Positions 1,658-22,020 of a stretch of DNA of 64,000 bases are shown piece after piece. Under the pieces are notes generated by a model. It was not told where the DNA came from. It saw nothing but the letters and a program-made list of their open reading frames with translations, and made no database searches. The position numbers and the translations under genes are program-made. The stretch's first letter is position 1, and the number at the start of each line of letters is the position of its first letter. Source of the stretch: a bacterium (GTDB lineage Bacteria > Oederibacteriota > JAJYGY01 > DAIDJD01); the NCBI GenBank assembly GCA_035485275.1, contig DATHOE010000037.1, forward strand, positions 8,701-72,700. The letters are read 5' to 3'.

Positions 1658-2422
1658 GTGAAGGCCCTCCGCCGCAAGCGCGTCAGCATCGTTGCCAGCC
1701 TGCGTTACGGCCTGCGCCTGACCCTGCGCCACATGCATTCCCTGGTGCCTGGGACGGTGGCCTTCTATCTTCCGGAGCTCTTCGCCCGTTACGGTCTGAC
1801 CGCGCCGGGCGGGGAAGTGGCGTCCACGGTGTTCAAGGTCTTGGTGGGCTGCTGGCTGCTCTGGCACGCCCTGAAGCTGAGCGACCGTGAGACGCGCTCC
1901 AGCCGCTTCCACGAACCCGTGCTTCCGGCCCCCGGCTATCTCGGGCGTTTCCTAGGATCGACCCTTCTGTTCTGGGGCGTGCTGGGCCTGACCCTTTGGC
2001 CCGCCTGGCGCCTGGCCTCGGGCACCTGGGGGGCGGACCCCGGAGCGGCGGCCTGGCTGTATCGCCCCTGGTTGTGGACCGGACCCCAAGCCTTGACCGC
2101 GGCCTGGCTGGCCCTGGCGTCCCTGCCCGCCGGGTTGTGGACGGTCTACGGCTGGTTCCACGGCTATTACGTGGCCGACGAAGGCCAGGGGCCCTGGGAA
2201 TCCATGCGCAGCAGCTTCAAGGCCGTGCGGGGGGCCTTCTGGCCCTGCGTGCTGTTCCTGGGGGTGATCGCGGTGGTGAACGCGCTCGGCCTGGCCCTGT
2301 GGGTGGTGGGCGTGTTCTTCGCGTTCCCGGTGACCCTGATGGCGACGACCTACGTGCATTTGGAATTGAAGCGCCAGACCCCGGAATTGAAAAAAGCGGG
2401 GCCAGGGAAGCCCAAGCGTTAG
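1658..2422 (+). CDS. Hypothetical polytopic membrane protein
   Basis: Several hydrophobic helices (WLLWHAL, LLFWGVLGLTLWPAW, VLFLGVIAVVNALGLALWVVGVFFAF). GTG 1658 is the first in-frame start after the upstream stop; the start is uncertain. Confidence 0.45.
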   Translation: MKALRRKRVSIVASLRYGLRLTLRHMHSLVPGTVAFYLPELFARYGLTAPGGEVASTVFKVLVGCWLLWHALKLSDRETRSSRFHEPVLPAPGYLGRFLGSTLLFWGVLGLTLWPAWRLASGTWGADPGAAAWLYRPWLWTGPQALTAAWLALASLPAGLWTVYGWFHGYYVADEGQGPWESMRSSFKAVRGAFWPCVLFLGVIAVVNALGLALWVVGVFFAFPVTLMATTYVHLELKRQTPELKKAGPGKPKR

Positions 2423-2581
2423 CACAAAAATTTTTTCACTTAATTTTCGTAAGTGTTCGGTGAATCAGTCAGGGGCGGACGGCCCGCGCTTACCGAGGTC
2501 CAGGGCCGCCCCGGGGCCACGGCCCCTGCCATCGAAGCCCAGCTCCGGAAAGCTCCTGGCTGCGTACACCTGTTCCCCCGT

Positions 2582-3232
2582 TCACTTGGCCTTCCTCACG
2601 ACACGGACGTGGGAGACCGTCTTGGACGGGGTGAATTCGCTCACCTCGTAGCGTTCGTCCAAGCCGCCCAACCCTTCAAAGATCCGTTCTCCGTTGCCAA
2701 GCAGTATCGGGGCCAGGACCAGGTGCATCTCATCCACCAGGCCGGCCTTCAAGTACTGGCGCAGGGTCTCGGCGCCCCCTCCGATGCGGACGTCCCTCCC
2801 CTTTGCCGCGGCGAAAGCCTGCTTCAGCGCAGATTCGATGCCGTCGCTGACGAAGCTGAAACTGGTTCCGCCCTCCATGTCGAAGCTCGAATGTTGGTGA
2901 TGGCTGAGCACGAAGACGGGGTGGTGGTAGGGCGGGTTGGGGCCCCACCAGCCTTTCCACTCCTCGTCGGGCCAGGGGCCGCGCTGCGGGCCGAACATAT
3001 TGCGACCCATGATCGTGGCGCCCACATTGTCGTCGGCGCGGACCAGGAAGTCGTTGTCGAGGCCCTCGGCGCCGTCCGCTCGGCCGAGCATCTTGGCGAA
3101 GAATTTCGTGGCGAAGGCCCACTCCATCAGGCGCAGACCGTCCTTGCCGAAGGGGGCCTCCAGGGTCTGGCCCTTGGCCGCGGAATAAGCGTCCAAGGAG
3201 ATGGTAAAGCAGCGGGCGACAAGTTTAGGCAT
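2582..3232 (-). CDS. Dihydrofolate reductase family protein (RibD C-terminal-like reductase domain)
   Basis: 216 aa with the typical YyaP/RibD_C pattern (GRNMFGP..WPDEEWKGWWG...VFVLSH...). Recognised from the translation only. Confidence 0.75.
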   Translation of the reverse strand: MPKLVARCFTISLDAYSAAKGQTLEAPFGKDGLRLMEWAFATKFFAKMLGRADGAEGLDNDFLVRADDNVGATIMGRNMFGPQRGPWPDEEWKGWWGPNPPYHHPVFVLSHHQHSSFDMEGGTSFSFVSDGIESALKQAFAAAKGRDVRIGGGAETLRQYLKAGLVDEMHLVLAPILLGNGERIFEGLGGLDERYEVSEFTPSKTVSHVRVVRKAK

Positions 3233-3308: not shown

Positions 3309-4598
3309 CTATAGGTCCACCAAAGGCGGGTTCTCCGCCGGATTGTCCCCCCGGTACTTGTGCTGCCCCAGGCGCTGGGCGGAATAGATCCCCGCGTGCC
3401 CCGAGAACAGGTAGCTGGCCACGCAGGCCAGGCCGGCGAAAACGCCCGCCTGGGGGCCGAACAGCTCGAAGGCCATGAAGGTGGAGGCCAGGGGCGTGTT
3501 GGCCGCGCCCGCGAAGACGGCCACAAAGCCCATGCCGGCCATGAGCGGCGCGGGCAGGGCCAATAGGGGCGCCAGGGCGTTGCCCAGGGTGGCGCCTATA
3601 TAGAACAGGGGCGTGACCTCGCCGCCCTTGAAGCCGGCGCCCAGGCTCAGGGTGGTGAACAGGAATTTCCCGAGGAAGTCGAAGGGCCGGACCTGCCCGC
3701 TGAAGGACTGGGCGATAGCCGGGAGGCCCAGTCCGAGGTAGGCGGTGGAGCCGAGGGCGGCGGTGCCCATGAGAACCACGCAGCCTCCCCAAAAGGGCCG
3801 CATGGGGGCGTAGGGGACGAGCCGCTTGGCGAAGGCGGACAAGGCGTGGGTCGTCCTGGCGAAGGCCATGGCCACCAGGCCGAAGGCCGCGCCGGCCGCC
3901 AAGGCCTTTGCCATCCCGTCCAGGCCGAAATCCGGGACCGGCCCGATCTGGTAGACGCTGTGGTGGATGCCCCAGGCCTTGGTCACCAGGTTGGCGCAGA
4001 GGGAGGCCACGAAGCAGGGGAAGATGGCGTTGTAGCGGAGTTTGCCGATGGACAGGACCTCCAGGCCGAAGAGGGCGCCCGACATGGGCACCCCGAAGAT
4101 GGAACCGAAGCCGGCGCTGATGCCGCACATGATGAGGATGCGCCGCTCCTCGGGATCCAGGCGCAGGGGCAGGGCCAGCTGGTCGGCCAGGGTGCCCCCC
4201 ATCTGCACGGCGCTGCCCTCCCGGCCGACCGAGGCGCCGAAGAGGTGGCTGGCCACCGTCCCAAGGAAGATCATCGGGGTCATGCGCCGGGGCAGGCGGG
4301 TCCGGGGGTCGTGGATCTCGTCGATGAGGAGGTTGTTCCCGCGCTCGACGTCGCGCCCGTATTTCAGGTAGAGCCAGCCGACCGCGAAGCCGGCGGGGGG
4401 GAGCCCCAGCAGGATCCAGAGGTGGGATTCGCGCCAGGCGGTGGCCCAGTCCAGGGAGGCGAGCAGGGCGGCCGAAGCGCTGCCGGCGGCCACGGACACG
4501 GCCAAAGCGATCAGCAGCCATTTGAGCAAATAGGCCAGCATGGGGACTGTTTCGGAAAAATGTTTTGTCGGGGTGTTCATGGACTTCCACCTCCTCAT
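3309..4598 (-). CDS. ClC family voltage-gated chloride channel / H+-Cl- antiporter
   Basis: 10-12 TM helices. GREGS (GREGP-like) and GxFxP-like selectivity motifs (ASVGREGSAVQMGG; FGVPMSGALFGLE). Confidence 0.85.
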   Translation of the reverse strand: MRRWKSMNTPTKHFSETVPMLAYLLKWLLIALAVSVAAGSASAALLASLDWATAWRESHLWILLGLPPAGFAVGWLYLKYGRDVERGNNLLIDEIHDPRTRLPRRMTPMIFLGTVASHLFGASVGREGSAVQMGGTLADQLALPLRLDPEERRILIMCGISAGFGSIFGVPMSGALFGLEVLSIGKLRYNAIFPCFVASLCANLVTKAWGIHHSVYQIGPVPDFGLDGMAKALAAGAAFGLVAMAFARTTHALSAFAKRLVPYAPMRPFWGGCVVLMGTAALGSTAYLGLGLPAIAQSFSGQVRPFDFLGKFLFTTLSLGAGFKGGEVTPLFYIGATLGNALAPLLALPAPLMAGMGFVAVFAGAANTPLASTFMAFELFGPQAGVFAGLACVASYLFSGHAGIYSAQRLGQHKYRGDNPAENPPLVDL

Positions 4599-4749
4599 GG
4601 CACAAAGGGTTTCAGGGGGTAGAAGTTATCAGCGTCAAGTCGGACGACCCAAGGCGGTTTCAGGCGAACTTCATCACCTTTGAATTTCGTCCATTTATAC
4701 CTAAACGCAATGCGCTAGGCAAGCCCCTTCGCCGGGACTAGAATCCTCC

Positions 4750-4890
4750 CACTGCTCCCTGGTGCGCGGCTACGGCGACGGAACCGCGAGAATAGGGAAG
4801 CCCGTGAGAAGCGGGCGCGGTGCACGCCACTGTAAGCGAGGGGACCGACCCTTGTGAGCCAGGAGACCTGCCCGGGAGCTGGACCGTCTT
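4750..4890 (+). ncRNA. Cobalamin (AdoCbl) riboswitch aptamer
   Basis: Conserved core GGTGC...AGGGAAGCCCGTGAGAAGCGGGCGCGGTGCACGCCACTGTAAGCGAGG, and B12-box GCCAGGAGACCTGCC at ~4857-4871. Lies directly upstream of cobC. Confidence 0.8.
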
Positions 4891-6251: not shown

Positions 6252-7351
6252 GGCCTGCGCCTGCCTTCGCGACCCTGCTCCAGCTCCACGGCGCCGACGT
6301 GTACGACTCCAAGGGCGCGGCCTTGGCGGGTCGGGACTTCTCCAGCACCGTGGTCAGCCTGGGCCCCCCGCGGGGATGGAAACGCCGCGCCCGGGAGGCC
6401 ATGGACAGCCTGACGCGCTATCCGCGGCCCCATGGAAGGGGTCTGGACGGTTTTCTCGCGGGAAAACTGGGCCTGGCCCCCTCCTGCGTGCTGGTTTCCA
6501 ACGGGGCCAGCGAGGCGCTGGAATGGTGCGCCCGTTTGGCCGGTGGGCGGCGTGCCCGCCTGCTTGCCCCCTGCTTCGGCGAATACCGGGCCAAGCTGGA
6601 ACGCGCCGGCGCCCGGGTGGACGAGGTCTGGTGGGACCTGTCCAAGGAGCTGGATGTCGACGCCTTGGCCGAGGGATTGGGCGTCGGGGACCAGGTCTGG
6701 GTGGCCAATCCCAGCAATCCCTTCGGCCGCGTGCTTGGGACCCTTGAACTCTCCCGTTTGGAAAGCCGTTGCCGTTCGCGGGGGGTGCTCCTGGTGCTGG
6801 ACGAGGCGCTGATGGCCCAGCGGCTGGACAGCCCGAGTCACGCCGATCCCGGCGCTTTTCCAGGGCAAAAGGACAATCCCTGCCTGGTGGTGGTCCGCTC
6901 CCTGGGCAAGGGCCTGGGCCTTCCCGGCTTGCGTCTGGGCTATCTGGCCGCGGAGCGGGGCTTGGCGGCCCGCCTGAGGCGTTTCCAGGACCCCTGGAGC
7001 GTGAATTCCATGGCCCAGGAGCTGGGGGCCTGGGCTTTTGAGCAGGAGGCCCTCCTCGCTGCCGGCCGCCGTCGCCTGCTCCAGGGCCGGGCCCAGGACC
7101 TCTTCCAACGCCTTTCGGGCTGCCCTGATCTGCAGGCCGCGCCCACCCGCGCCACGGGCTATTTTTGCGTGCGCCTGAAGTCGCCCCGTGCCTCCGGCGT
7201 CGCCGCGCGCCTGGCGGACCTGGGCCTTTTTGTCCGGGATTGCTCCAGTTTCGGCCGCTGGGGCCGCTCCTGGTTGCGCCTGAATCCGCGCAGCGCGCCG
7301 GAGAACCAGGCCCTCGCGCGCGCTCTCCCCAAAGTTTTGGGCCGGGCATGA
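6248..7351 (+). CDS. cobD: L-threonine-O-3-phosphate decarboxylase (class I/II aminotransferase fold)
   Basis: Aminotransferase-fold protein in a cob operon (..VANPSNPFG.., ..SLGKGLGLPGLRLGY..). GTG start overlaps the cobU TGA. Confidence 0.75.
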   Translation: MRPAPAFATLLQLHGADVYDSKGAALAGRDFSSTVVSLGPPRGWKRRAREAMDSLTRYPRPHGRGLDGFLAGKLGLAPSCVLVSNGASEALEWCARLAGGRRARLLAPCFGEYRAKLERAGARVDEVWWDLSKELDVDALAEGLGVGDQVWVANPSNPFGRVLGTLELSRLESRCRSRGVLLVLDEALMAQRLDSPSHADPGAFPGQKDNPCLVVVRSLGKGLGLPGLRLGYLAAERGLAARLRRFQDPWSVNSMAQELGAWAFEQEALLAAGRRRLLQGRAQDLFQRLSGCPDLQAAPTRATGYFCVRLKSPRASGVAARLADLGLFVRDCSSFGRWGRSWLRLNPRSAPENQALARALPKVLGRA

Positions 7352-8850
7352 CGCGCCGGCCCTACCAGGTCCTGGTCCTGGGCACCGGATCCCATGTGGG
7401 CAAGTCCATGGTGGCGGCCGGGCTCTGCCGGGTGCTGTCGGACCGGGGCTGGCGCGTGGCGCCCTTCAAGGCCCAGAATATGGCCCTCAATTCGGCGGTG
7501 GCGGACGACGGCAGCGAGATCGGCAGGGCCCAGTGGCTCCAGGCGATCGCGGCCAGGTCCCGTTCCGAGGCCCGCATGAACCCGGTCCTGCTCAAGCCCA
7601 GCGGTTCGAGGGGCAGCCAGGTGGTGGTCCTGGGGAAGTCCCAGGGCATCCACAGCACCCGCGCCTACTTCCGGCGCTGGCCCAGCGTGGCCAGGCAGGC
7701 CCAGAAGGCCTGGCAGGGTCTGGCCCGGGACTATGAGGCCCTGGTCATGGAGGGGGCCGGTTCCCCGGCCGAGGTGAATCTGAGCCACCGCGACCTGGCC
7801 AACCTTGAGACCGCGCGCTTCAGCGGAGCGCCCTTTATCCTGGTGGCGGACATAGAGCGGGGAGGGGCCTTTGCAGCGGTCGTTGGCACGCTGGGGCTTC
7901 TGCCCGCTTGGTTGCGGAAGCGCTGCCTGGGGGTCGTGTTCAACAAGTTCCGGGGTGACGTCAGCCTGATGGACAGTGGCCTTCTGTGGTTGAAGCGCCG
8001 GGGCATACGGCCCTTGGGGGTGCTGCCCTGGTGCGAAGACTTGGGATTGGAGGACGAAGACAGTCTGGGACTTCCTTCAACTAAAACTTTAGATAAATCA
8101 GAAAAATTATTGTTAATAGATGTCATTAGAAATCGATTCATTTCTAACTTTAACGATTTTTTGCCCCTGCAGGGACTAAAGGGTGTCCAGCTTCGCTGGT
8201 CAGCTCCGGGCCAGGTCCGTAGCCGTCCGGATCTGGTGATCCTGCCGGGCAGCAAAAATAGCCTCGCGGACATGCGGCATTTGAGGATCAGCGGGGAAGC
8301 CAGGCGGCTGGAGCAATGGCGCGGCCAGGGGACCTGGTTTTTGGGGATCTGCGGCGGATTCCAGATGTTGGGACAGTACCTTCAAGATCCCGGGGGCATG
8401 GACGGGGGGCGCAAGGGGGCCTCGGAACAGGGTCTGGGATGGCTGGAGGCCAGCACCTGCATGGCGCCCCACAAGATCCTGGCTCTGCGACGCCTGGTGG
8501 CCCGTACTTCCTTGGGAAGCCTGGACCTGGAAGGCTACGAGATCCACCACGGCCGTACAAGCTTGGGCCAGGGCCTGCGCGTGGAGGCCCAGACGGATAA
8601 AGGGGAGCCCCTTTTGGTGAGCGGGGCCAAGGGCGCGGTTTGGGGCGGCTACCTGCACGGGCTCCTGGACGGCCCGGACTTCCGCAACGCCTTCCTGGCC
8701 CGCCTGGCCCGCAGCCACGGCAAGGTCTTCCGCGGCGCCAGCGGGGAATCCCAAAACGATCGAAGGGAAGCGGGCCTGCGCCGTTGGAGCAGGCACATGG
8801 TCGAACACCTGGACCTGGGCTTTTTGCCGGCCGCGGGCCCGCAGGCATGA
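7348..8850 (+). CDS. cobQ: Cobyric acid synthase
   Basis: N-terminal ATPase domain (VLGTGSHVGKS) plus C-terminal glutamine-amidotransferase domain (..IDVIRNRFISNFNDF.., GICGGFQMLG). ATGA overlap with cobD. Confidence 0.9.
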   Translation: MTRRPYQVLVLGTGSHVGKSMVAAGLCRVLSDRGWRVAPFKAQNMALNSAVADDGSEIGRAQWLQAIAARSRSEARMNPVLLKPSGSRGSQVVVLGKSQGIHSTRAYFRRWPSVARQAQKAWQGLARDYEALVMEGAGSPAEVNLSHRDLANLETARFSGAPFILVADIERGGAFAAVVGTLGLLPAWLRKRCLGVVFNKFRGDVSLMDSGLLWLKRRGIRPLGVLPWCEDLGLEDEDSLGLPSTKTLDKSEKLLLIDVIRNRFISNFNDFLPLQGLKGVQLRWSAPGQVRSRPDLVILPGSKNSLADMRHLRISGEARRLEQWRGQGTWFLGICGGFQMLGQYLQDPGGMDGGRKGASEQGLGWLEASTCMAPHKILALRRLVARTSLGSLDLEGYEIHHGRTSLGQGLRVEAQTDKGEPLLVSGAKGAVWGGYLHGLLDGPDFRNAFLARLARSHGKVFRGASGESQNDRREAGLRRWSRHMVEHLDLGFLPAAGPQA

Positions 8851-12287: not shown

Positions 12288-13652
12288 TTGAAGCTGCCGC
12301 GCCTGCTCATCGCCGCGCCGGGTTCCAGTTCCGGCAAAACATGCGTCGCCCTCCTGGCGGCGGCCTGGGCGCGCAAGCAGGGACTGGATGTGCGCGCCTT
12401 CAAGGCGGGGCCGGATTTCATCGATCCCCAATACCTGTCCGCGGTCACGGCCCGACCGGTGCCAAGCCTGGATCCCTGGTTCCTGCCCCCACCGGCCTTG
12501 AAAAGGCACTTCATGCGCTGGGGGGCGGGCGCGGATCTGGCCTTGGTGGAGGGCGTGATGGGCCTCTACGACGGCAAACGGGACGAGCCCTTTGGCCGCT
12601 ATTCCAGCGCGGAAGTGGCGCGGACCCTGGATCTCCCGGTTCTGCTGGTCCTCAATGCGCGCAAGGCCGGCCCCACCTTGGCGACGCAGGCCCTGGGCCT
12701 GGTGCGCGCGGACCCGCGCCTCCGTTTCTGCGGCGTGGTCCTGAACCACGTTTCCAGCGCCAAGGGGGCGGTCCCCATCGCGTCGGCGATCAAGAAGCTC
12801 ACCGGCCTTCCGACCCTGGGCTGGCTGCCGACTTTGAGGGACTTGGACCTCCCGGAGCGGCACCTGGGTTTGACCGCGGCGAGCGAAATGGCCCAATGGC
12901 AGGCGCGCCTGGAGGCGGCGCTGCCCGAAGCCGCCAAGAATTTGGATTTCAAAGCCCTGCTGAGGGCCGCCCAAAGCGCCCGGCCCTGGTCCCAGGCCGC
13001 GGTAGCGGAACCGCGGACCCGCAAACCTAGCTTTCGTTTGGCCGTGGCGCGGGATGAGGCCTTCCATTTCTATTACCCCGAAAACCTGCGCCTGTGGGAG
13101 GACCTGGGCGCGGAATTGGCCTTTTTCAGCCCCCTGCATGACACCTGCCTGCCTGAGGGCGTCCAAGGCCTCCTGTTGGGCGGCGGCTTTCCGGAGAGCT
13201 TCGGCGCGGCCCTGGCCGCCAATGTGCGGCTCATGGCCGCGGTGCGAGAGGCTATCGCCGGCGGCCTGCCCTTCTGGGCGGAATGCGGCGGACTCATGTG
13301 GTTGTGCGAACACATGGTCGACGCCGAAGGGAAGAGCCATGCCCTGGTCGGGGCCCTTCCCGCCACCGTGAGCATGGGGGCAAGGCTGCAGAATTTCGGT
13401 TATACCCAGGCGCAGGCGAGGCCGGGCAAAGCCTGGCCCAAGGGCCTCTTCCTGCTCAAAGGGCACGAGTTCCACCACAGCAGCCTGGTCGCGCGCCTCC
13501 CACTCCAGAGCGCCTGGACCTTAAGTCAAAGCAAGAGGCCCGACCGCTCCGAGGGCTGGACCCGGAAGCGCGGCGTGGCGACCTATTTCCACGCCTACCT
13601 GCCTTCCGCCCCGGCTGCGGCGAAGGCTTTCGCGCGGCTTTGCAAGGATTGA
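12288..13652 (+). CDS. cbiA: Cobyrinic acid a,c-diamide synthase
   Basis: N-terminal AAPGSSSGKTCVALLAA ATPase motif plus C-terminal GATase domain. Last gene of the cob operon. Confidence 0.85.
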   Translation: MKLPRLLIAAPGSSSGKTCVALLAAAWARKQGLDVRAFKAGPDFIDPQYLSAVTARPVPSLDPWFLPPPALKRHFMRWGAGADLALVEGVMGLYDGKRDEPFGRYSSAEVARTLDLPVLLVLNARKAGPTLATQALGLVRADPRLRFCGVVLNHVSSAKGAVPIASAIKKLTGLPTLGWLPTLRDLDLPERHLGLTAASEMAQWQARLEAALPEAAKNLDFKALLRAAQSARPWSQAAVAEPRTRKPSFRLAVARDEAFHFYYPENLRLWEDLGAELAFFSPLHDTCLPEGVQGLLLGGGFPESFGAALAANVRLMAAVREAIAGGLPFWAECGGLMWLCEHMVDAEGKSHALVGALPATVSMGARLQNFGYTQAQARPGKAWPKGLFLLKGHEFHHSSLVARLPLQSAWTLSQSKRPDRSEGWTRKRGVATYFHAYLPSAPAAAKAFARLCKD

Positions 13653-13704: not shown

Positions 13705-13920
13705 ATGCCCGATATATTGATCAAAGATTTGCCGCCGCTTCTCCATCGCCGCCTTAAAGAGGAGGCGAAGTCGCATCATCGTTCGATGAACCAGGAGATT
13801 CGGCAGATTCTTGAAATTCATCTTGAACGTCCAGGAATTCCGGACATAAAGCCCTTTGTGCTCGGTGAGCCGCTAACCGATGACTATATAAAAAAAGCCC
13901 GCCGTGAAGGCCGAGCGTGA
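13705..13920 (+). CDS. Type II antitoxin, FitA/VapB-like (ribbon-helix-helix)
   Basis: 71 aa starting MPDILIKDLPPLLHRRLKEEAKSHHRSMNQEIRQIL. Sits upstream of a PIN toxin and overlaps it. Confidence 0.7.
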   Translation: MPDILIKDLPPLLHRRLKEEAKSHHRSMNQEIRQILEIHLERPGIPDIKPFVLGEPLTDDYIKKARREGRA

Positions 13921-14333
13921 TCATCGTCGACACGGATATCCTGGCCTATTACCTGATCCAAGGGGAACGGACGGACCAGGCGCAGCAACTGAAAAATATC
14001 GACCAAGATTGGCGAGCCCCTCAACTGTGGCGGGCGGAATTCGTCAGCGTGGTGAATAAGCAGCTCAAATCCAAGCGCATTACCTTGGCGCAGGCGCACG
14101 AGATTTTGGCCGCCGCTTCCAGCATATACAACGGAATCGACATGGTGGTCGATATGTCCGAGGTATTGGACGTCGCTTCAGCGACAGGGGCTAGCACCTA
14201 CGACGCCCATTTTTTGGCACTGGCCCATCGCAGCGGCAAGCCTTTGGTTACCGGTGAAAAGCGTCATCCCGGTGCTTCGCATCGTTGGGCGGTCAATATA
14301 GATGATTTTTTGGCCTCAAAGCGGATGGTTTGA
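13917..14333 (+). CDS. vapC: PIN-domain toxin (VapC/FitB-like)
   Basis: MIIVDTDIL...D...YDAHFLALA shows the PIN acidic residues. GTGA overlap with the antitoxin. Local GC is lower than in the flanks. Confidence 0.8.
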   Translation: MIIVDTDILAYYLIQGERTDQAQQLKNIDQDWRAPQLWRAEFVSVVNKQLKSKRITLAQAHEILAAASSIYNGIDMVVDMSEVLDVASATGASTYDAHFLALAHRSGKPLVTGEKRHPGASHRWAVNIDDFLASKRMV

Positions 14334-15503: not shown

Positions 15504-15998
15504 ATGGGGCAAGCGGTCGTGCATTTTCAGATAGGCGTCGCGGATGACCTGGCCGCCGCGAAATTTTACACCGAACTCTTCGGCTGGATAGCCACCCCCG
15601 TTCCGGGCATGCCGTACCACAGCATTGAGACGGGCGCGGGGCAGGGCATACCCGGAGGCATCGCCAAAGCCGGAAACGAGAGCGAGGCGGTGGTGACCAT
15701 TTACGTGGAAGTGGACGATGTCGCGGAGTCCCTGGCCAAGGCCTCTGGGATGGGGGCCACGGTCACGATGGCGGCCGGTGAGGTGATGCCGGGCCTGGTC
15801 CTGGGCATGTTCAATGATCCCCAGGGCCGCAGCATCGGCTTGGTCCACGACACCCGTCCGCGTCCCGCGGCCGCAGCTGACGCCAAGAAAAAAACCGGCG
15901 CCTCCGCCAAGGCGGAGAAAAAGGTTAGGGCCGGAAAGGGCAAGGATAAGAAACCGAAGAAGGACAAAAAGGGAAAGAAGGGGAAGAAAAAGCGTTGA
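15504..15998 (+). CDS. VOC (glyoxalase/bleomycin-resistance fold) protein with lysine-rich C-terminal tail
   Basis: N-terminal ~120 aa has a glyoxalase-like betaalphabetabetabeta repeat (VVHFQIGV.. / GRSIGLVHD). The last ~45 aa are KKKTGASAKAEKKVRAGKGKDKKPKKDKKGKKGKKKR. Confidence 0.65.
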   Translation: MGQAVVHFQIGVADDLAAAKFYTELFGWIATPVPGMPYHSIETGAGQGIPGGIAKAGNESEAVVTIYVEVDDVAESLAKASGMGATVTMAAGEVMPGLVLGMFNDPQGRSIGLVHDTRPRPAAAADAKKKTGASAKAEKKVRAGKGKDKKPKKDKKGKKGKKKR

Positions 15999-18343
15999 AC
16001 CAAGGAACTGGATCTTCGCGGATTTTGGAATCGATTTCGGCGCTTGATCCGGTGTGCGGCATGAGCGTGGACGTGGCATCGCCCAAGGGCGGGAGCCACG
16101 TCCACGCCGGCCGGACCTATTATTTTTGCAGCGACCATTGCCGCGTCCAATTCGCGGCAGATCCGATCGGTTATTTGGACGGCACGCTTCCTGAAAGCTC
16201 CGATCCCGATGCCATATACACCTGCCCTATGGACCCCGAGATCGAACAAAAGGGGCCCGGTTCCTGTCCGATCTGCGGCATGGCCCTGGAACCCAAGGAT
16301 CCGGCGAGCGTCGACGGAGGGGCCACGCTGAAGGCCGCCCGCAGCCGTTTTCTGCTCAGCGCCCTGTTGGCCGCGCCCCTTGCCGGCCTGGTGATGACGC
16401 AGGAATGGACGGGCTGGCACTGGCCGGCCAGCCCATACGGACGACTGCTTCAGGCCGCCTTGGCCCTTCCGGTGGTGGCTTGGGCGGGCGCTCCCGTTTT
16501 TTCAAAGGCCGCCACCAGCCTCCGTACCCGCAAACTCAACATGTACACCCTCATCGGGCTGGGAACGGGTATGGCCTTGCTTTATAGCCTGGCGGCCCTG
16601 GCGATTCCGGGCGCTTTTCCCTCCGCGTTTTGGCGGCGAGGCCCGGACGGTCCCCAACTGCCCATGTATTTCGAGGCCGCGGCCGTGATCACGGCCCTGG
16701 TCTTGTTGGGGGAATGGCTGGAGCTGCGCGCACGGGGCCAAACCTCCCAGGCTCTCAAAGCCTTGTTGGACCTTCAGGCCCGCACGGCTCGGCGCCTGGA
16801 AGCGGACGGTTCCGAGAGCGAGGTCGACCTCGCTTTGGTTCGGCCGGGCGAGCGTCTGCGCGTGCGTCCCGGAGAGACCGTTCCCGTGGATGGGGAGGTC
16901 TTGGAGGGCCTAAGCTGGGTGGATGAGAGCCGGATGTCCGGCGAGAGCGAGCCGCTGGCCAAGGAGGCCGGGGACGAGGTGCTTGGAGGCACCCTCAACG
17001 GGCAGGGAAGCTTCGTCATGGAGGCCCGCCGGGTGGGCAGGGACAGCCTGCTGGGCCGCATCGTGGCCCAGGTGGCCGAAGCCCAACGCAGCCGCGCGCC
17101 CATCCAAAGGTCGGTGGACCGCGTTTCGGCCGTCTTTGTGCCGGCGGTGGTGGCTTGCGCGGCTGCCAGTTTCATGGTCTGGGCTTTGTGGGGGCCTGAG
17201 CCGCGCCTGGCCATGGCCCTGCTCAACGCCGTGACCGTGCTCATCGTGGCCTGCCCCTGCGCCCTTGGACTGGCCACGCCGATGAGCGTCATGGTGGGCA
17301 TGGGGCGGGCGGCCCAGATGGGGGTATTGTTCCGCGATGCCGAGGCCTTGCAGGCACTGGGAACCGTGGACGTCCTTTGCCTGGACAAAACCGGCACCCT
17401 CACAGAAGGCCGGCCGGCCCTGACTGCCGTTGTAGCTGGGGAAGGCTTGTCCGAAGCGGAATTGCTGGCCCTGGCGGCTGGTTTGGAGCGCCACAGCGAA
17501 CATCCCCTGGCCCGGGCGGTGCTGGAAGCGGCCCAGATGCGCGGATTGTCGCCCCGGCCCTGCGAAGGCTTTTTGTCCGTCGCCGGCCAGGGTGTGGAGG
17601 GGAAAGTGCCGGGCCTGAGCGGAGGCGAAAACCTGGCCGGGGAAGGCCGTTTGCGTATAGGAACCGCCGCCTTCTGCGGTATTAGTGATTTTGCCTGGCT
17701 GGAACGCGCTGAGAGCCTGCGCGCGGAGGGGGCCACGGTCTTTTTCGTGGAACTAGAGGGGCGCACGCTGGGTTTGCTTGCGGTCGCAGATCCGGTCCGC
17801 GCCACGGCCCAGGAGGCCCTGTCCAGGCTCCAAGAGGCTGGATTGCGTTTGATCGTTCTCAGCGGCGACGCTGAAGGCACGGTAAAGGCCGTGGGCAGGC
17901 GAATGGGCCTGACGGAATTGAAGGCCGGGCTTTCTCCCCTTGATAAGGCCGAAGCCGTGCGGAGCCTGCAGTCCGAGGGTTGCCGGGTTGCCATGGCGGG
18001 TGATGGAGTCAACGACGCTCCGGCTTTGGCTGCAGCAACCGTGGGCATCGCCATGGGCACCGGGACGGATGCGGCTAAACTGAGCGCCGGTGTTACCCTC
18101 ATTCGCCCCGACCTAAGGGGCATTCTGAGAGCCCGGTCCTTGTCGAGGGCTGTGCTGCGCAATATCAGCCAGAACCTGTGGTGGGCCTTGCTCTACAACT
18201 CCCTGGGCGTGCCCATCGCGGCCGGCTTGCTTTATCCGTTCACGGGGATGCTGCTCAGTCCTATGTATGCGGCAGCGGCCATGAGCTTGAGTTCATTGTG
18301 TGTCGTGGGCAACGCGCTGAGGCTGAGGCGCTTTGAGAATTGA
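15995..18343 (+). CDS. copA: Copper-translocating P1B-type ATPase with N-terminal TRASH/YHS metal-binding domain
   Basis: Motifs DPVCGM (TRASH/YHS), CPICGM, CPC (ACPCALGLATP), DKTGT, GDGVNDAP. TTG start overlaps the VOC stop (TTGA). Confidence 0.9.
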   Translation: MNQGTGSSRILESISALDPVCGMSVDVASPKGGSHVHAGRTYYFCSDHCRVQFAADPIGYLDGTLPESSDPDAIYTCPMDPEIEQKGPGSCPICGMALEPKDPASVDGGATLKAARSRFLLSALLAAPLAGLVMTQEWTGWHWPASPYGRLLQAALALPVVAWAGAPVFSKAATSLRTRKLNMYTLIGLGTGMALLYSLAALAIPGAFPSAFWRRGPDGPQLPMYFEAAAVITALVLLGEWLELRARGQTSQALKALLDLQARTARRLEADGSESEVDLALVRPGERLRVRPGETVPVDGEVLEGLSWVDESRMSGESEPLAKEAGDEVLGGTLNGQGSFVMEARRVGRDSLLGRIVAQVAEAQRSRAPIQRSVDRVSAVFVPAVVACAAASFMVWALWGPEPRLAMALLNAVTVLIVACPCALGLATPMSVMVGMGRAAQMGVLFRDAEALQALGTVDVLCLDKTGTLTEGRPALTAVVAGEGLSEAELLALAAGLERHSEHPLARAVLEAAQMRGLSPRPCEGFLSVAGQGVEGKVPGLSGGENLAGEGRLRIGTAAFCGISDFAWLERAESLRAEGATVFFVELEGRTLGLLAVADPVRATAQEALSRLQEAGLRLIVLSGDAEGTVKAVGRRMGLTELKAGLSPLDKAEAVRSLQSEGCRVAMAGDGVNDAPALAAATVGIAMGTGTDAAKLSAGVTLIRPDLRGILRARSLSRAVLRNISQNLWWALLYNSLGVPIAAGLLYPFTGMLLSPMYAAAAMSLSSLCVVGNALRLRRFEN

Positions 18344-18474: not shown

Positions 18475-18786
18475 TCAGAGGTCCTGCCAGGTTTGGATGA
18501 AGTCAGGCTTCTGTCCCAGGAGCCTAATTAGGCGGCTTGCCACCCCATCAGGACGACGGACACCGCGTTCCCAGGCCGTGACACTGTGGGAGCTCACACC
18601 AACCAGATCCGCGAAGCGCGCCTGGGACACGTTCATGCCCTTGCGCGTAGCCTTGACCTCAGCGGGGCTGGCGGGGAGGCGGTCAGATGCGGATTTTCCT
18701 CTGGCCACAACTTGGCTCATTGCGGCGATTGGGCCTGATTCATTTCCTGTAATGGTGGCGGCTTCTTTCATGCTTAGCTTTGGCAT
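18475..18786 (-). CDS. XRE-family HTH protein (HigA/antitoxin-like), orphan
   Basis: C-terminal HTH MNVSQARFADLVGVSSHSVTAWERG. Strong RBS AGGAGG. No partner toxin ORF is detectable upstream. Confidence 0.6.
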   Translation of the reverse strand: MPKLSMKEAATITGNESGPIAAMSQVVARGKSASDRLPASPAEVKATRKGMNVSQARFADLVGVSSHSVTAWERGVRRPDGVASRLIRLLGQKPDFIQTWQDL

Positions 18787-19040
18787 GGCATCCTCCTGTC
18801 AGGTACAGTGTTGAATCTAAGGCTCTCCTATTTTGAGCAAAAGTTGTGCTATAATTTCAGACTAACGTTTTTCTTATAGATAAAATAGCATAATAACAGG
18901 TCATATTATACATAAAACAGAGTCAATAGTTATACTTTGTATATATAAATGTACAAAAATTATAATTATGTATAAATTATATATATTTATAGTGCATACA
19001 AAAAACGAACTAAATTTTTTGGACTGTTTCGTTCGAAACA

Positions 19041-19142
19041 ATGCCCTCGAAAAGGTCAAAGTTAACAGAGGGGCAGATCACCGACGTGCTCAAGCAAGCC
19101 CAAACTGTTATTCTTGCGGTCGAGACAATTCGCAAGTTTTGA
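19041..19142 (+). pseudogene. Relic of IS3-family transposase OrfA N-terminus (33 codons)
   Basis: MPSKRSKLTEGQITDVLKQAQ... resembles IS3/IS407 OrfA N-termini (MPRKRYSAEQIIAKLREAE...). Truncated by an in-frame stop. Sits in AT-rich DNA downstream of an extended -10 (TGcTATAAT at ~18846). Confidence 0.3.
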
Positions 19143-19436
19143 ATGAGCAAGATGACGCTTTGCGAGAATGCTCGGGGGTATATTTGGGTGGTTTCCGGGC
19201 ACTCTTTTTGGCGGGCTTGGTTGTCTTGAACTTTGACTTTTTGGTCAGGCCAGCCGGGGTTTTTCACCCATTGCCCCACGGTCACCGGACGGCCTTTCTG
19301 CGCTTCGTAGAAGGCCATTCGGGTCCCCTTTAGGTCGCCTTCGCCCTTGAGCATCGCTTTTAATTGTTAACGTTAAACATGACAACTTTCGCAAGTCAAT
19401 TTTCAATCGATACAGTCAATGTGCTGTTATGGCGTC

Positions 19437-19474
19437 GAGAGCAAAAGGGCGTAGGACTAAAATTCTTACGCCCC
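19437..19474 (-). terminator. Intrinsic terminator of the low-GC two-gene operon
   Basis: On the minus strand, GGGCGTAAGAATTTTAGTCCTACGCCC followed by TTTTGCTCTC, immediately after the 19502 stop. Confidence 0.55.
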
Positions 19475-19501
19475 GTAGTTAGATTTATGAGCCGGGAAAT
19501 T

Positions 19502-20299
19502 TTAAAACGTCGTCGAAAGTAGTGTAATGTGTGGCTCGAGATTTTGAGCAAAATTCACTTGGGGAATTTGCCAAGATACCTGTTTGTCTTCAATGTGTAT
19601 TAATCCTGAGTCGTCCATTGTTCTCCGGTTACGATTTTTTCCAATGTGCCATAAGATTAAACCAGTAATTCCGTCGGCAGCTCCGAGGGAAGCAATGAGA
19701 ATGCCATAATCCTCCAAGTTCGCACCATTTGCTTCATTGGTCGCATCTGTATCAGCCGCAATATAGTTGCCGTCGCTTAAGTCAGTGCTATAAGAATCAG
19801 CTGCGCTCTGATAACTGTTAATTCCAGAGCCCGCCATAATTACTCCGCCAACAGTTGCAGCTAATCCAGTCCAAAACATGATCCTACCAGTTGAGACCAT
19901 TCCTGAATTTGGTAATGTGTTTTCATTATTTATTATTTCGTAATTTTTTTGATATTTTTTATGATGATAATTTTTTTTAATAATTTCAGAATCATAGGAA
20001 TCATCAGGATCATCGGTATAGTCTTTGAGAGATATACGTTTTCCTTCAGAATCAAATACCTTTTCAATTTTTGTCATGGAAATTTCCTTAATATCGCCAT
20101 TGGGGGATTTCAACGTCACGCCTGTAAGATCAATGCCAATCAAGATTCCAGTTATACCCCCTCCGTCATTTACCAATATCACAGTGACGGATTGGTTTGC
20201 TAATCCATCAGCGGTCAAGTTAAGTGATAGAATAAATGCCAGAATAAAAAAGCAAGCAAACAAAAAATTACTTTGTTTTTTGACTAGTTCTATATTCAT
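19502..20299 (-). CDS. Hypothetical membrane protein (signal/TM1 + two C-terminal TM helices), low GC
   Basis: About 35% GC. N-terminal hydrophobic segment FLFACFFILAFILSL and TM segments GRIMFWTGLAATVGGVIMAG and GILIASLGAADGITGLILW. No recognisable domain. Confidence 0.5.
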   Translation of the reverse strand: MNIELVKKQSNFLFACFFILAFILSLNLTADGLANQSVTVILVNDGGGITGILIGIDLTGVTLKSPNGDIKEISMTKIEKVFDSEGKRISLKDYTDDPDDSYDSEIIKKNYHHKKYQKNYEIINNENTLPNSGMVSTGRIMFWTGLAATVGGVIMAGSGINSYQSAADSYSTDLSDGNYIAADTDATNEANGANLEDYGILIASLGAADGITGLILWHIGKNRNRRTMDDSGLIHIEDKQVSWQIPQVNFAQNLEPHITLLSTTF

Positions 20300-20367
20300 A
20301 GTATTCCTTAAGTTGGAGTATTATTGATGAATCTATTTCGTATTTTTATATTTGTATTCCTGCTAGG

Positions 20368-20823
20368 TTAATCAATCCAATAACCGTAACCATTCCCAAT
20401 ACAGCCAAAATGCAATTCGTTGCAACACGATGAAGATGCAGACGAAGAACTTATGACAGCTGCAGTGGAATAATTGCAGCCATTTAATGTTACTGTATGA
20501 GCATAATTAGATGCATAAGGGCCAACCGCATATGCGGTTCCACCAGAAAGTGTAATTGGAATGCCGCTATCAACTTGAAATACTACAGAGGTGCAGTCTG
20601 ACGCATTTTGAATTAAAAACCAATTTCCCGAAGTTGGAAACGTGTTAAGAAATACATTACTGAAGTTTGCCGAACAAGATTGAGATACAGGCGTTGGGTT
20701 GCTGTTGGGGTTAAAAGGATTGTTGGCATGGTTACAGCTGAGACAGAAACCTACAACTATGAAAATTAGATAGTAAAAAAATGCGGGGGATTCCACCTGT
20801 TCTAGCACAATTTTTTTCCGCAT
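20368..20823 (-). CDS. Hypothetical Cys-rich secreted/lipoprotein-like protein, low GC
   Basis: Signal peptide FFYYLIFIVVGFCLSC. Mature part carries ~9 Cys and is Ser/Asn/Thr-rich. Co-oriented with 19502..20299 and 68 nt upstream of it. Confidence 0.45.
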   Translation of the reverse strand: MRKKIVLEQVESPAFFYYLIFIVVGFCLSCNHANNPFNPNSNPTPVSQSCSANFSNVFLNTFPTSGNWFLIQNASDCTSVVFQVDSGIPITLSGGTAYAVGPYASNYAHTVTLNGCNYSTAAVISSSSASSSCCNELHFGCIGNGYGYWID

Positions 20824-20924
20824 TGCCCAGTCACCCCCAAGCTTCGAGAACCAAAAGTTTTGAAAAGTATATCAAATACGTATTTGTGGGTCAAAATTAA
20901 AGTGAGGCAGTGACTAGGATGGTC

Positions 20925-20952
20925 TTGACATGCTCATCATATATGATGTAAT
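20925..20952 (+). promoter_or_regulatory. Sigma70-like promoter (TTGACA-16-TGTAAT) with embedded 14-bp perfect palindrome CATCATATATGATG
   Basis: -35 at 20925-30, -10 at 20947-52. The palindrome at 20935-48 overlaps the spacer and -10, as a classic autoregulatory toxin-antitoxin operator would. RBS GGGGGA 5 nt before ATG 20967. Confidence 0.6.
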
Positions 20953-20966
20953 TTATTGGGGGATCG

Positions 20967-21278
20967 ATGCAAAGACGTTACGATACATCCGAAAGCCAGA
21001 GAATGGTGAATACCATCCTCACTGGTCAGGAATGGGATTCGCTGGACATCCAACTTACTTGTATCGACCGAGGTTTGGGAATGTTCGGTCGAAGGGATAT
21101 CCGCATCGAGGCCGCGAAGAGAACGATCATAATTACGGTCTATGTTTCTTCGCAGCTTGATGCGATCTATGTCTTGGGCTATCACCTAGAAAGGAAAGGT
21201 GAGCCGACTGACAACCAGAGGATGCGAATTGTCGAGTATATTGCTGAGATTCAGGCCCTTGAAAAAAATAGGAGCTGA
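20967..21278 (+). CDS. Type II toxin, Gp49/HigB-like (RelE/ParE superfamily)
   Basis: ~100 aa, with ..RTIIITVYV..AIYVLGYHLERKGEPTD..RIVEYIAEI resembling the Gp49/HigB pattern (..IILLHGFiKKtqKTP..eie.A). Immediately followed by an XRE antitoxin gene. Confidence 0.55.
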   Translation: MQRRYDTSESQRMVNTILTGQEWDSLDIQLTCIDRGLGMFGRRDIRIEAAKRTIIITVYVSSQLDAIYVLGYHLERKGEPTDNQRMRIVEYIAEIQALEKNRS

Positions 21279-21279
21279 C

Positions 21280-21633
21280 ATGAAGACCTCTGTTTTGGAA
21301 AGGGAACATAAAGGTGCAAGCAAGCTGGCGCCCAGCATCTTCGATCCCAGTTGGCAAGGAACAGATGAAGATACTCTGTTTAAAAAAAATAGGCCTGATC
21401 TATTTGGACAGAAGAAAAAACCAAGTGAAAAGCATCGACTGGCCCGACAACTCTTTACGTTACGCAAGGCCGCTGGACTTTCCCAAGGCCAGATAGCCAA
21501 GAGGGCGGGCATAGGATCAGCCACTTATCAACGTATTGAGGAGTGTCAGCCGGTGGCCAATCCCGGCCTGGATATTCTTGTTAAGCTGGCCCGCGCTTTT
21601 GGCGTCGACATTCAAAGTCTTTTCCCCAAATAG
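21280..21633 (+). CDS. XRE-family HTH antitoxin (HigA-like)
   Basis: HTH LRKAAGLSQGQIAKRAGIGSATYQRIEEC. Starts 2 nt after the toxin stop. Confidence 0.65.
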   Translation: MKTSVLEREHKGASKLAPSIFDPSWQGTDEDTLFKKNRPDLFGQKKKPSEKHRLARQLFTLRKAAGLSQGQIAKRAGIGSATYQRIEECQPVANPGLDILVKLARAFGVDIQSLFPK

Positions 21634-21786
21634 ATCTTTTGACGCTCTATGGTTTTCGTAGATTCTTGCTGGATTGAGACACTTCAGGCAAAGTCCGGCT
21701 AATGTTCAGAATGTAGGGAATAAAGGCATCCAGAGGTACATTCTATAGTGAGATTTCATACGCATGAGAGCCGGAGGTATGCATTC

Positions 21787-21963
21787 ATGAAGAAAAAGCC
21801 CTTTAAAGTGCTTCAATGGGCCCTGTTCCTGGTAGGACTCTCTGTCATCTGTGCCGGATGTTTCTGGGGCTACGGAGGCCGTGGCTATCATGACGGTCGC
21901 GGTGGTTGGAGAGGCGATGGAGACAGAGGCGGTTACGGACACGATGGCGGTTACGGCCGTTAG
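21787..21963 (+). CDS. Small secreted Gly/Arg/Tyr/Asp-rich peptide (58 aa)
   Basis: MKKKPFKVLQWALFLVGLSVICAGC signal peptide, then the low-complexity stretch FWGYGGRGYHDGRGGWRGDGDRGGYGHDGGYGR. RBS GGAGG upstream and its own terminator downstream. Confidence 0.4.
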   Translation: MKKKPFKVLQWALFLVGLSVICAGCFWGYGGRGYHDGRGGWRGDGDRGGYGHDGGYGR

Positions 21964-21973
21964 GGCCGTCGTT

Positions 21974-22020
21974 AAACCGGGTCATGCGTCCGTCCCTTGG
22001 GAAGCATGACTCGGTTTTTA
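21974..22020 (+). terminator. Intrinsic terminator
   Basis: AAACCGGGTCATGC...GCATGACTCGGTTT stem (one G-U pair) followed by TTTTT. Confidence 0.6.

Follow-up and report, generated by a model that had tools for sequence, protein, structure and literature searches.

We describe an AT-rich, G-poor run of rare codons inside cobQ, the gene for adenosylcobyric acid synthase, in a stretch of 64,000 nucleotides of bacterial DNA (positions 8,701 to 72,700 of contig DATHOE010000037.1, assembly GCA_035485275.1; hereafter the window). The run, which we call the island, lies where the N-terminal ATPase domain passes into the glutamine amidotransferase (GATase) domain, and it recurs at the same codons in relatives whose nucleotide sequences differ. 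Comparison of these sequences implies that the island is old and confined to one clade, close to candidate division FCPU426, in which it is kept by selection, or by a standing local force. As to its function, we tentatively favor slow translation at the domain junction, with a nucleic-acid element in RNA or DNA as the main rival.

The initial annotation of this DNA had pointed to a low-GC patch at 8066-8165 with its reading frame maintained. The quoted sequence is indeed found there, at 27.0% GC (30.6% for the slightly wider 8060-8170), and the frame runs open through the island with the correct translation, KTLDKSEKLLLIDVIRNRFISNFNDFLPLQ. The GC content of the gene is 68.5% upstream of the island (7348-8073) and 67.1% downstream of it (8164-8850), and that of the window as a whole is 64%. 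The drop affects all three codon positions: GC1/GC2/GC3, the GC fractions at the first, second and third position, are 0.21/0.24/0.17 in the island, compared with 0.67/0.51/0.89 upstream and 0.70/0.51/0.80 downstream; counted over codons 243-272, GC3 goes down to 0.2 from ~0.84 in the rest of the gene. No other internal 60-nt segment below 0.35 GC was found among the ~45 coding open reading frames (ORFs) of the window, with cobQ reaching 0.20. The remaining low-GC stretches of the window are intergenic or fall within a low-GC island at 18.7-22 kb.

Pfam places the CbiA domain of CobQ at residues 9-233 (7e-21), accompanied by AAA_26, and GATase_3 at 257-444 (1.7e-38). In the AlphaFold model (mean predicted local distance difference test score, pLDDT, 88.5), DSSP assigns the final strand of the N-terminal domain to residues 222-227, the first GATase strand to 255-260 and a helix from 268 onward, and pLDDT falls below 50 at 238-250. 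No solved structure with detectable sequence similarity to CobQ was found. The island, at residues 243-272, spans the distal half of the inter-domain linker and strand beta1, as well as NFND, the motif with which the first GATase helix begins. The earlier placement of the patch exactly at the linker was thus nearly right: the distal half of the linker is covered, but the island also runs on through beta1 and NFND.

The rarity of the codons was assessed against a null model in which the protein was held fixed and codons were drawn from the usage of 35 other window genes. With 24.2 +/- 2.1 codons ending in G or C expected, only 6 of 30 were observed (z = -8.6), and none of 200,000 simulations gave fewer than 13. 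The %MinMax profile reaches its minimum of -81 over the island, and the log-likelihood of its 30 codons is -101, where the median for the gene is -41. About 85% of the genome's codons end in G or C. Among the rare codons of the island, given with their share of the synonymous family in the window, are three TTA (1%), AGA (2%), CGA (3%), two TCA and one TCT (3% each), two ACT (4%) and ATA (7%). The run is rare by the genome's own usage, with a negative %MinMax.

A search at the protein level placed the window CobQ in a compact clade of proteins from uncultivated bacteria with 52-80% identity, followed by next matches at no more than 47%; the nearest named member, at 53% identity, belongs to candidate division FCPU426. 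DNA for 13 clade members was taken from independent public assemblies, one close relative (L160) being contributed by a DNA-pattern scan of metagenomes. Distant homologs among the matches listed in a scan of genome collections served as the outgroup set of cobQ genes. An AT-rich trough lies at the same codons in nine relatives with 64-80% protein identity (L001, L002, L160, L004, L177, L178, L179, L180 and L181), whose sources are Logan SRR33744910, SRR30413542, ERR14790938 and SRR35365466, JGI Ga0182024, 3300035696 and 3300048930, NCBI GCA_027451505.1 and ENA ERZ27310456. Altogether, 10 of the 14 clade genes carry the island at the same columns, on both main branches of the clade. In each trough-bearing gene, island GC3 is 0.17-0.59 compared with 0.60-0.91 in the rest of the gene, and the mean GC3 profile of the window and eight relatives (without L181) stays at ~0.8 throughout, with a single trough at residues 236-270 and a minimum of 0.21. 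A scan of 4-7.5 kb of operon sequence per relative returned the island as the only AT dip in the eight relatives that passed the threshold; in L180, which has the weakest trough, no dip passed it.

The nucleotide sequences of the islands differ among lineages, and their alignments are colinear without any indel at the island. Synonymous identity between clade members in the flanks is 0.40-0.68, barely above the 0.37-0.55 expected from codon usage alone, indicating that synonymous sites are close to saturation. The island therefore stands at the same position in synonymously diverged homologs. A neutral AT tract would have equilibrated to a GC3 of ~0.8, yet this one has been kept in ten lineages, which points to selection or a standing local force. 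The initial annotation had allowed that an identical AT-rich linker throughout the genus would be ancient and unremarkable. The island is indeed ancient and shared by relatives. Its sequence varies from lineage to lineage, however, and that it persisted while synonymous sites diverged nearly to saturation renders it more, not less, remarkable.

The island is absent from L003, L182 and L183, the three genes with the highest GC3 (0.92-0.94), which a neighbor-joining tree places inside the clade. That only the genomes with the most extreme GC have lost it would suit a distributed property under weak selection. The basal L184 also has no island. In the contig of L184 (ENA contig_258259_np1212, 1925-3014), the cobD aminotransferase gene is split into three ORFs of 63, 87 and 126 aa, which suggests frameshift errors in a long-read assembly, so that its composition results need care. 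Outside the clade, none of the 29 outgroup cobQ genes with GC3 above 0.7 shows a dip (patch-minus-gene GC3 of -0.13 to +0.16), which rules out a general property of cobQ or of GC-rich cobQ, and a rare-codon island was not seen in any of 80 outgroup cobQ genes.

Codon choice within the ten islands offers a greater level of detail about what is retained. Lys, Glu and Gln codons end in A in 95% of cases (39:2), compared with 33% in the flanks, and Asp, Asn, Phe, Tyr and His codons end in T in 56% compared with 35%. Ile is written as ATA or ATT in 83% of cases in the island and in 29% in the flanks, Leu as TTA in 32% and 2%, and four-fold codons end in A or T in 72% and 16%, respectively. Island-to-flank ratios at the third position are 4.4x for A, 2.9x for T, 0.56x for C and 0.25x for G. 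The depletion of G extends to codon positions 1 and 2, its overall fraction falling from 0.34-0.40 in the flanks to 0.10-0.23 in the island; C is more frequent than G in 9 of 10 islands, the reverse of the flanks. Within the island, A predominates in the first half and T in the second.

At several positions the ten genes keep the same synonymous choices: CCT at residue 243, GAA-AAA at 252-253, nnA-(A/G)(T/C)A-GAT-GTT-ATT at 256-260 and AAC-TTT-AAC-GAT at 267-270. Third-position A is found at residues 256 and 257 in all ten genes, although the residues themselves vary (L/V/K/Q and I/V/A). Linker residues differ as well, being K/S/T/E-rich in island-bearing genes and P/A/R/G-rich in genes without the island. 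This shift indicates that selection at the nucleotide level dragged dispensable amino acids along.

Of the explanations proposed in the initial annotation, an embedded nucleic-acid or translational element is the one that survives, and we rank translational slowing first among its forms, while we infer every step of the mechanism. Our tentative reading is that a slowly decoded run of codons would give the ATPase domain time to leave the ribosome and fold while the amidotransferase domain is still to be synthesized. The TTA, ATA, AGA, CGA, TCA, ACT, AAA and GAA codons of the run would be read by minor tRNAs, slowing the ribosome for ~30 codons. As the exit tunnel holds ~30-40 residues, codons 243-272 would be decoded while the last part of the ATPase domain, ending at about residue 227-237, emerges. 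This domain could then fold, or bind its substrate, before the GATase domain appears, and dependence on rare tRNAs could tie CobQ output to their supply. With ~30 codons, the island is as long as the exit tunnel of the ribosome.

Slow decoding is favored by the extreme rarity of the codons, by the recurrence of the trough at the same columns while synonymous sites in the flanks are near saturation, and by its position relative to the domains. A-ending Lys, Glu and Gln codons would need a separate minor tRNA, whereas the codons of Asp, Asn, Phe, Tyr and His are read by one tRNA for both endings. The shift is stronger in codons that would need a separate minor tRNA (A-ending Lys, Glu and Gln, TTA, ATA and A-ending four-fold codons) than in NAY codons, which fits selection on decoding speed. 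At some columns of the alignment the rarer codon is used over an equally AT-rich alternative: ATA stands at column 257 in all seven sequences that carry Ile there, and several island Arg codons are CGA while none is CGT. We count this for the decoding-speed reading. Rarity and AT content are confounded in the clade, where amino-acid composition shifts too, and only L182 separates them: it lacks the AT-richness, yet at the junction its codon optimality is near the lowest of the gene (1 of 468 windows lower), which fits a constraint on translation rate. We also count for such a constraint that the searches for a promoter, a conserved RNA structure, an Rfam family and a conserved alternative ORF found none. 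Rare-codon clusters that are conserved among homologs are well established as a phenomenon (PMC5438181).

Several observations weigh against slow translation at the junction. Conserved rare-codon clusters were reported to be under-represented near domain boundaries (Chaney et al. 2017, PMC5438181), and the island is specific to one clade, with high-GC3 outgroup genes showing no dip. In 81 outgroup genes, codon optimality at the junction (relative synonymous codon usage of each gene, computed leaving the tested segment out) did not differ from that in control segments, in a test that is biased downward. Loss of the island in three nested lineages indicates that selection is weak or replaceable. 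GC at the first two codon positions is 0.25-0.47 in the islands compared with 0.60, and neither this AT shift nor that of the linker residues is required by a model of decoding speed alone. Val is encoded by GTT rather than the rarer GTA, and no tRNA genes that would bear on tRNA supply were found within the window. The paralog cbiA/cobB, with the same Pfam architecture as CobQ, has its gene-wide minimum of 15-codon GC3 at residues 236-250 (0.60 at ~12993-13037, with ~0.85 elsewhere in the gene), which is a faint echo of the cobQ island and by itself counts for slow translation; the dip is mild, and no other multidomain gene of the window shows one.

Readings that place a nucleic-acid element at the island, whether in RNA or in DNA, together form the main rival to slow translation; we consider them on the unlikely side even when combined. 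The shift at all codon positions, the lineage specificity and the location in the operon interior favor them. A related and somewhat less probable proposal, for both of its forms jointly, is that the island acts as a lineage-specific regulatory checkpoint in the cobQ linker and not as a folding aid. It might be a 'codon gate' by which the supply of minor tRNAs limits CobQ synthesis and, by way of translational coupling or polarity, also that of the distal B12 genes; alternatively, it might be an A/U-rich RNA or DNA site giving the downstream salvage genes a control independent of the riboswitch.

An RNA element taken by itself is unlikely in our view. It would be an A/U-rich, G-poor and weakly structured site of ~90 nt, in a polycistronic mRNA that is otherwise GC-rich, for an RNase E-type endonuclease, Rho, a small RNA with its chaperone, or S1, and it would govern transcript stability or polarity in the distal half of the operon (cbiB-cobO-cobT-cobS-cbiA). 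Selection on nucleic acid predicts what is seen in all codon positions and in the linker residues, namely a shift to A and T, and the composition is asymmetric between strands, with its drop in G and its excess of C over G. Such a site would also be consistent with a dip that is the only deep one in the operon sequence of eight relatives, and with lineage specificity, which is typical for regulatory elements. The island length of ~90 nt is near that of a primary binding site of Rho. A Rho utilization (rut) site is ~70-80 nt of C-rich, G-poor, unstructured RNA; the islands are G-poor, but their C fraction is 0.13-0.28, compared with 0.24-0.34 in the flanks, unlike classical rut sites. Cleavage or termination in the middle of cobQ would moreover destroy cobQ expression.

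Structure prediction bears on the same proposal. For the alignment of relatives, RNAalifold returned a consensus of -0.85 kcal/mol with 3 pairs and no compensatory changes; a structured cis-regulatory RNA finds no support in this result, which we count for a weakly structured binding site. The island has no Rfam match at E<=1, and no motif was found to be conserved in it beyond the amino acids and the A/T-ending codons, both of which count against an RNA site. The predicted unpaired probability, 0.36-0.59 in the island and 0.28-0.36 in the flanks, is only modestly raised, since weak pairing between its A-rich and U-rich halves is possible. A perfect inverted repeat in the island (Table 1) arises from an AGA codon (Arg) in the window, in place of the TCT or TCA (Ser) of relatives. 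Since TCT read on the opposite strand is AGA, it may have originated by a 3-nt inversion. As it is not kept in relatives, we rejected it as a conserved feature and judged it incidental.

A DNA element is less likely still. The island might hold an internal or antisense promoter, for riboswitch-independent transcription of salvage genes or a cis-antisense RNA, or a silencing site for an AT-binding nucleoid protein. With 21-23% GC the island resembles the intergenic promoter regions of the genome, and in mycobacteria, which are GC-rich, transcription starts arise within genes upon synonymous recoding to AT-rich codons (PMC10055193), a precedent for this reading. TANNNT motifs number 1-5 per strand in island-bearing genes and 0-1 in genes without the island, and two antisense motifs, TAACAT at residue 258 and TAAAGT at residue 267, are conserved by position in 9 of 10 genes. 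These antisense motifs are explained by the conserved D-V-I and N-F-N residues plus T-ending codons. A weak minus-strand arrangement, TTAGCx-16-TAACAT, matches at only 7-8 of 12 positions in a permissive scan and is explained by the conserved D-V-I and S/A-N codons; it is present in 8 of 10 genes but missing from the window, which has the strongest island. No sigma-70-type promoter with at least 9 of 12 matches and a spacing of 16-18 nt was found on either strand at 7600-8700. A property of duplex DNA would treat G-to-A and C-to-T changes alike, so that the asymmetry observed (A for G in 95% and T for C in 56%, with G at 0.25x and C at 0.56x) is not expected. The island also lies ~690 nt upstream of cbiB. 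A repeated operator was rejected, as the conserved cores are present only once in the 64 kb and have no further copy near the operon promoter.

Signals in other reading frames were considered as well. No alternative frame is open in all relatives; the only candidate, an antisense frame (-1), has stops in L002, L178 and L179, being closed in 3 of 10 genes. An overlapping ORF from the out-of-frame ATG in GAT-GTT is not conserved in L002 or L179, and its peptides differ. A slippery or poly-A frameshift site was rejected as well, with runs of A6-7 in some relatives and none in the window.

We give little credence to a neutral relic, that is, an unameliorated ancient AT tract, foreign or otherwise, or locally relaxed GC pressure in an unconstrained linker under AT-biased mutation. 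The graded trough (GC3 from 0.17 to 0.59), absent in the three highest-GC lineages, does look like partial amelioration, and rare codons in disordered regions have been ascribed to drift (discussion in PMC5438181). Against this stand the flanks, so near to synonymous saturation that a neutral tract should have equilibrated, and the course of the trough through the structured, conserved beta1 and NFND. No other window gene shows such decay, specific synonymous choices are kept by position, and the P/A/R/G linkers of relatives without the island indicate that the default pressure on the linker is toward GC.

A foreign origin in particular, proposed initially as a recombination or gene-conversion tract from a low-GC donor, does not agree with the comparisons. 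The island is far from private to a single strain or tip, being shared by ten diverged lineages from the two main branches of the clade. The protein is continuous with the clade: the window has DVIRNRFISNFNDFLPLQGL where the GC-rich L003 has DVVRHRCMANFNDFLPLQGL, in entirely different codons, and D-V-[IV]-R-x-R...NFNDFLPLQGL is common to both. Among 80 outgroup cobQ genes, low-GC ones included, no donor-like similarity was found, the best match to the island being 54% at the nucleotide and 48% at the amino-acid level. The remnant of an excised insertion, also proposed, is contradicted by colinear alignments with no change of length at the patch. One homolog from a public assembly, P0058 (49-kb contig), is called as a protein of 393 aa whose frame breaks after ...EDSLGLPS, at about window residue 244, where linker and island begin, and which briefly regains the CobQ frame ~115 residues later. 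As an integration site it was rejected, being a frameshifted call at the linker and not an insertion; the break probably reflects indel errors of the assembly, or else a pseudogene. Finally, an assembly or sequencing artifact, a chimeric join with the cobQ of a low-GC organism for which the abrupt change in composition alone speaks, deserves practically no belief and is excluded as the cause by nine independent assemblies that share the trough, each with its own diverged nucleotide sequence.

Among known systems, the cobQ island most resembles a conserved rare-codon cluster, on the strength of its sequence features: synonymous rare codons clustered at the same column in diverged homologs and detectable by %MinMax (Chaney et al. 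2017, PMC5438181). As in slow-translating stretches proposed to help folding during translation, a slowdown at its position would leave a whole folding unit clear of the exit tunnel. Compared with the typical cluster, however, the island is far more extreme, at 21-23% GC in a gene of 68%, and it shifts codon positions 1 and 2 and the amino acids. It also occurs in one clade at the level of a candidate phylum instead of family-wide and lies at a domain junction, and its effect on translation is putative.

In high-GC Streptomyces, TTA, a rare Leu codon, is decoded by a regulated tRNA, bldA. The likeness to this control lies in TTA being almost unused (1% of Leu codons) while cobQ carries three, so that gating by a minor tRNA is possible. 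A bldA-type switch was nevertheless rejected, as TTA is not conserved across the clade: the islands of L177, L179 and L180 have none, and the only TTA of L004 stands just upstream, at residue 234. The cobQ signal is moreover a run of ~30 codons of many rare types rather than a single codon, and we know of no regulated tRNA in this lineage.

Intragenic AT-rich regulatory DNA includes downstream silencer elements bound by proteins of the H-NS/Lsr2 type. The island shares with such silencers, and with the TANNNT promoters of mycobacteria (PMC10055193), the form of a short AT island in a GC-rich coding sequence with TANNNT enriched on both strands. It differs in having no sigma-70-like promoter, in its strand asymmetry and in the absence of the recurrent antisense motif from the window. 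To our knowledge, no protein that binds the cobQ island has been described. Mosaic recombination tracts show a similarly abrupt, in-frame change of composition, here confined to ~90 bp, but the island is clade-wide with diverged sequence, its protein is continuous with that of GC-rich relatives, and no donor-like match to it was found among 80 outgroup genes.

Table 1. Coordinates of the island, its parts and related features (window positions)
Feature	Position	Strand	Description
cobQ (adenosylcobyric acid synthase)	7348..8850	+	ORF, 500 aa, begins MTRRPYQ
AT-rich, G-poor rare-codon island	8074..8163	+	codons 243-272; 23.3% GC; 6/30 codons G/C-ending
Maximal AT-scoring core	8076..8162	+	maximum-scoring-segment computation over the gene; 87 bp, 20.7% GC
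Coding sequence of disordered inter-domain linker, residues 238-254	8059..8109	+	limits from AlphaFold pLDDT and strands
First GATase strand (LLIDVI, residues 255-260), loop and NFND motif	8110..8163	+	DSSP on the model; A/T-ending synonymous codons
Perfect 8-bp inverted repeat, TTAGAAAT-N6 (CGATTC)-ATTTCTAA	8126..8147		private to this genome
Cobalamin riboswitch	4743..4889	+	Rfam RF00174, 76.1 bits; heads co-directional row of cob genes
Paralog cbiA/cobB, ATPase-GATase_3 junction	12993..13079	+	gene 12288-13652; same Pfam architecture as CobQ

Apart from the island, the gene is an ordinary CobQ inside an ordinary riboswitch-headed B12 operon. Its homologs are annotated as adenosylcobyric acid synthase, and it has the architecture of the family, an N-terminal CbiA/AAA_26 nucleotide-binding domain followed by GATase_3. 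C335, H400 and H437 are among the invariant residues of a 24-sequence alignment, and the GICGGFQ cysteine and YEIHHG histidine motifs are present; we take the catalytic roles of these residues to be those of the family. The riboswitch is followed by cobC-cobU-cobD-cobQ-cbiB-cobO-cobT-cobS-cbiA, identified by Pfam, and relatives keep the same order of cob genes, so that CobQ stands in a context of cobalamin biosynthesis. An additional alpha/beta-hydrolase gene (Abhydrolase_6) lies between cbiB and cobO in L003, L180 and L181, while the window and its closest relatives are without it.

Back to back with the cobalamin riboswitch, at a distance of only ~55 bp, lies a fluoride riboswitch (4613-4687, minus strand, 40.1 bits) with a CLC-type channel gene (3309-4598, minus strand) downstream of it. 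Given their divergent orientation and short distance, two divergent promoters must share the spacer. Directly after the cob operon, a FitA-like ribbon-helix-helix antitoxin gene (13705-13920, plus strand) overlaps a PIN-domain toxin gene (13917-14333, plus strand) as a VapBC-type pair, preceded by a good TTGACA-type promoter at ~13650. The low-GC island at 18700-22000, with 25-45% GC and a 100-nt minimum of 0.15, is probably horizontally acquired. Its ORFs without a Pfam match include predicted proteins of 265 aa (19502-20299, minus strand) and 151 aa (20368-20823, minus strand) with hydrophobic N-termini, and the region has two genes of helix-turn-helix/XRE type, at 18475-18786 (minus strand, MqsA-like) and 21199-21633 (plus strand). 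It is flanked by an OprB-family porin gene (22145-23485) and by a large ORF (15995-18343, plus strand) whose translation carries CPC and DKTGT motifs and, judged without a Pfam scan, looks like a heavy-metal P-type ATPase.

Nature offers few clear cases in which synonymous and near-synonymous composition withstands a strong GC pressure of the genome. Here, a single island of 90 nt has remained at ~20-40% GC through deep divergence, although the genes around it have 57-74%, and has pulled the linker residues along. As a practical warning, an abrupt in-frame change of composition in a metagenome-assembled gene should not lead one to discard it as a chimera, and how the island stretch is recoded may matter when these cobQ genes are expressed in other hosts. 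The island is unusually well suited for testing whether runs of rare codons at domain junctions matter in folding or whether coding sequence can hold a composition-based regulatory element, and its location in a single assayable enzyme makes it experimentally tractable. If the checkpoint proposal were true, selection on nucleic acid would have remodeled the protein sequence of the linker, and this in a candidate phylum without cultured members.

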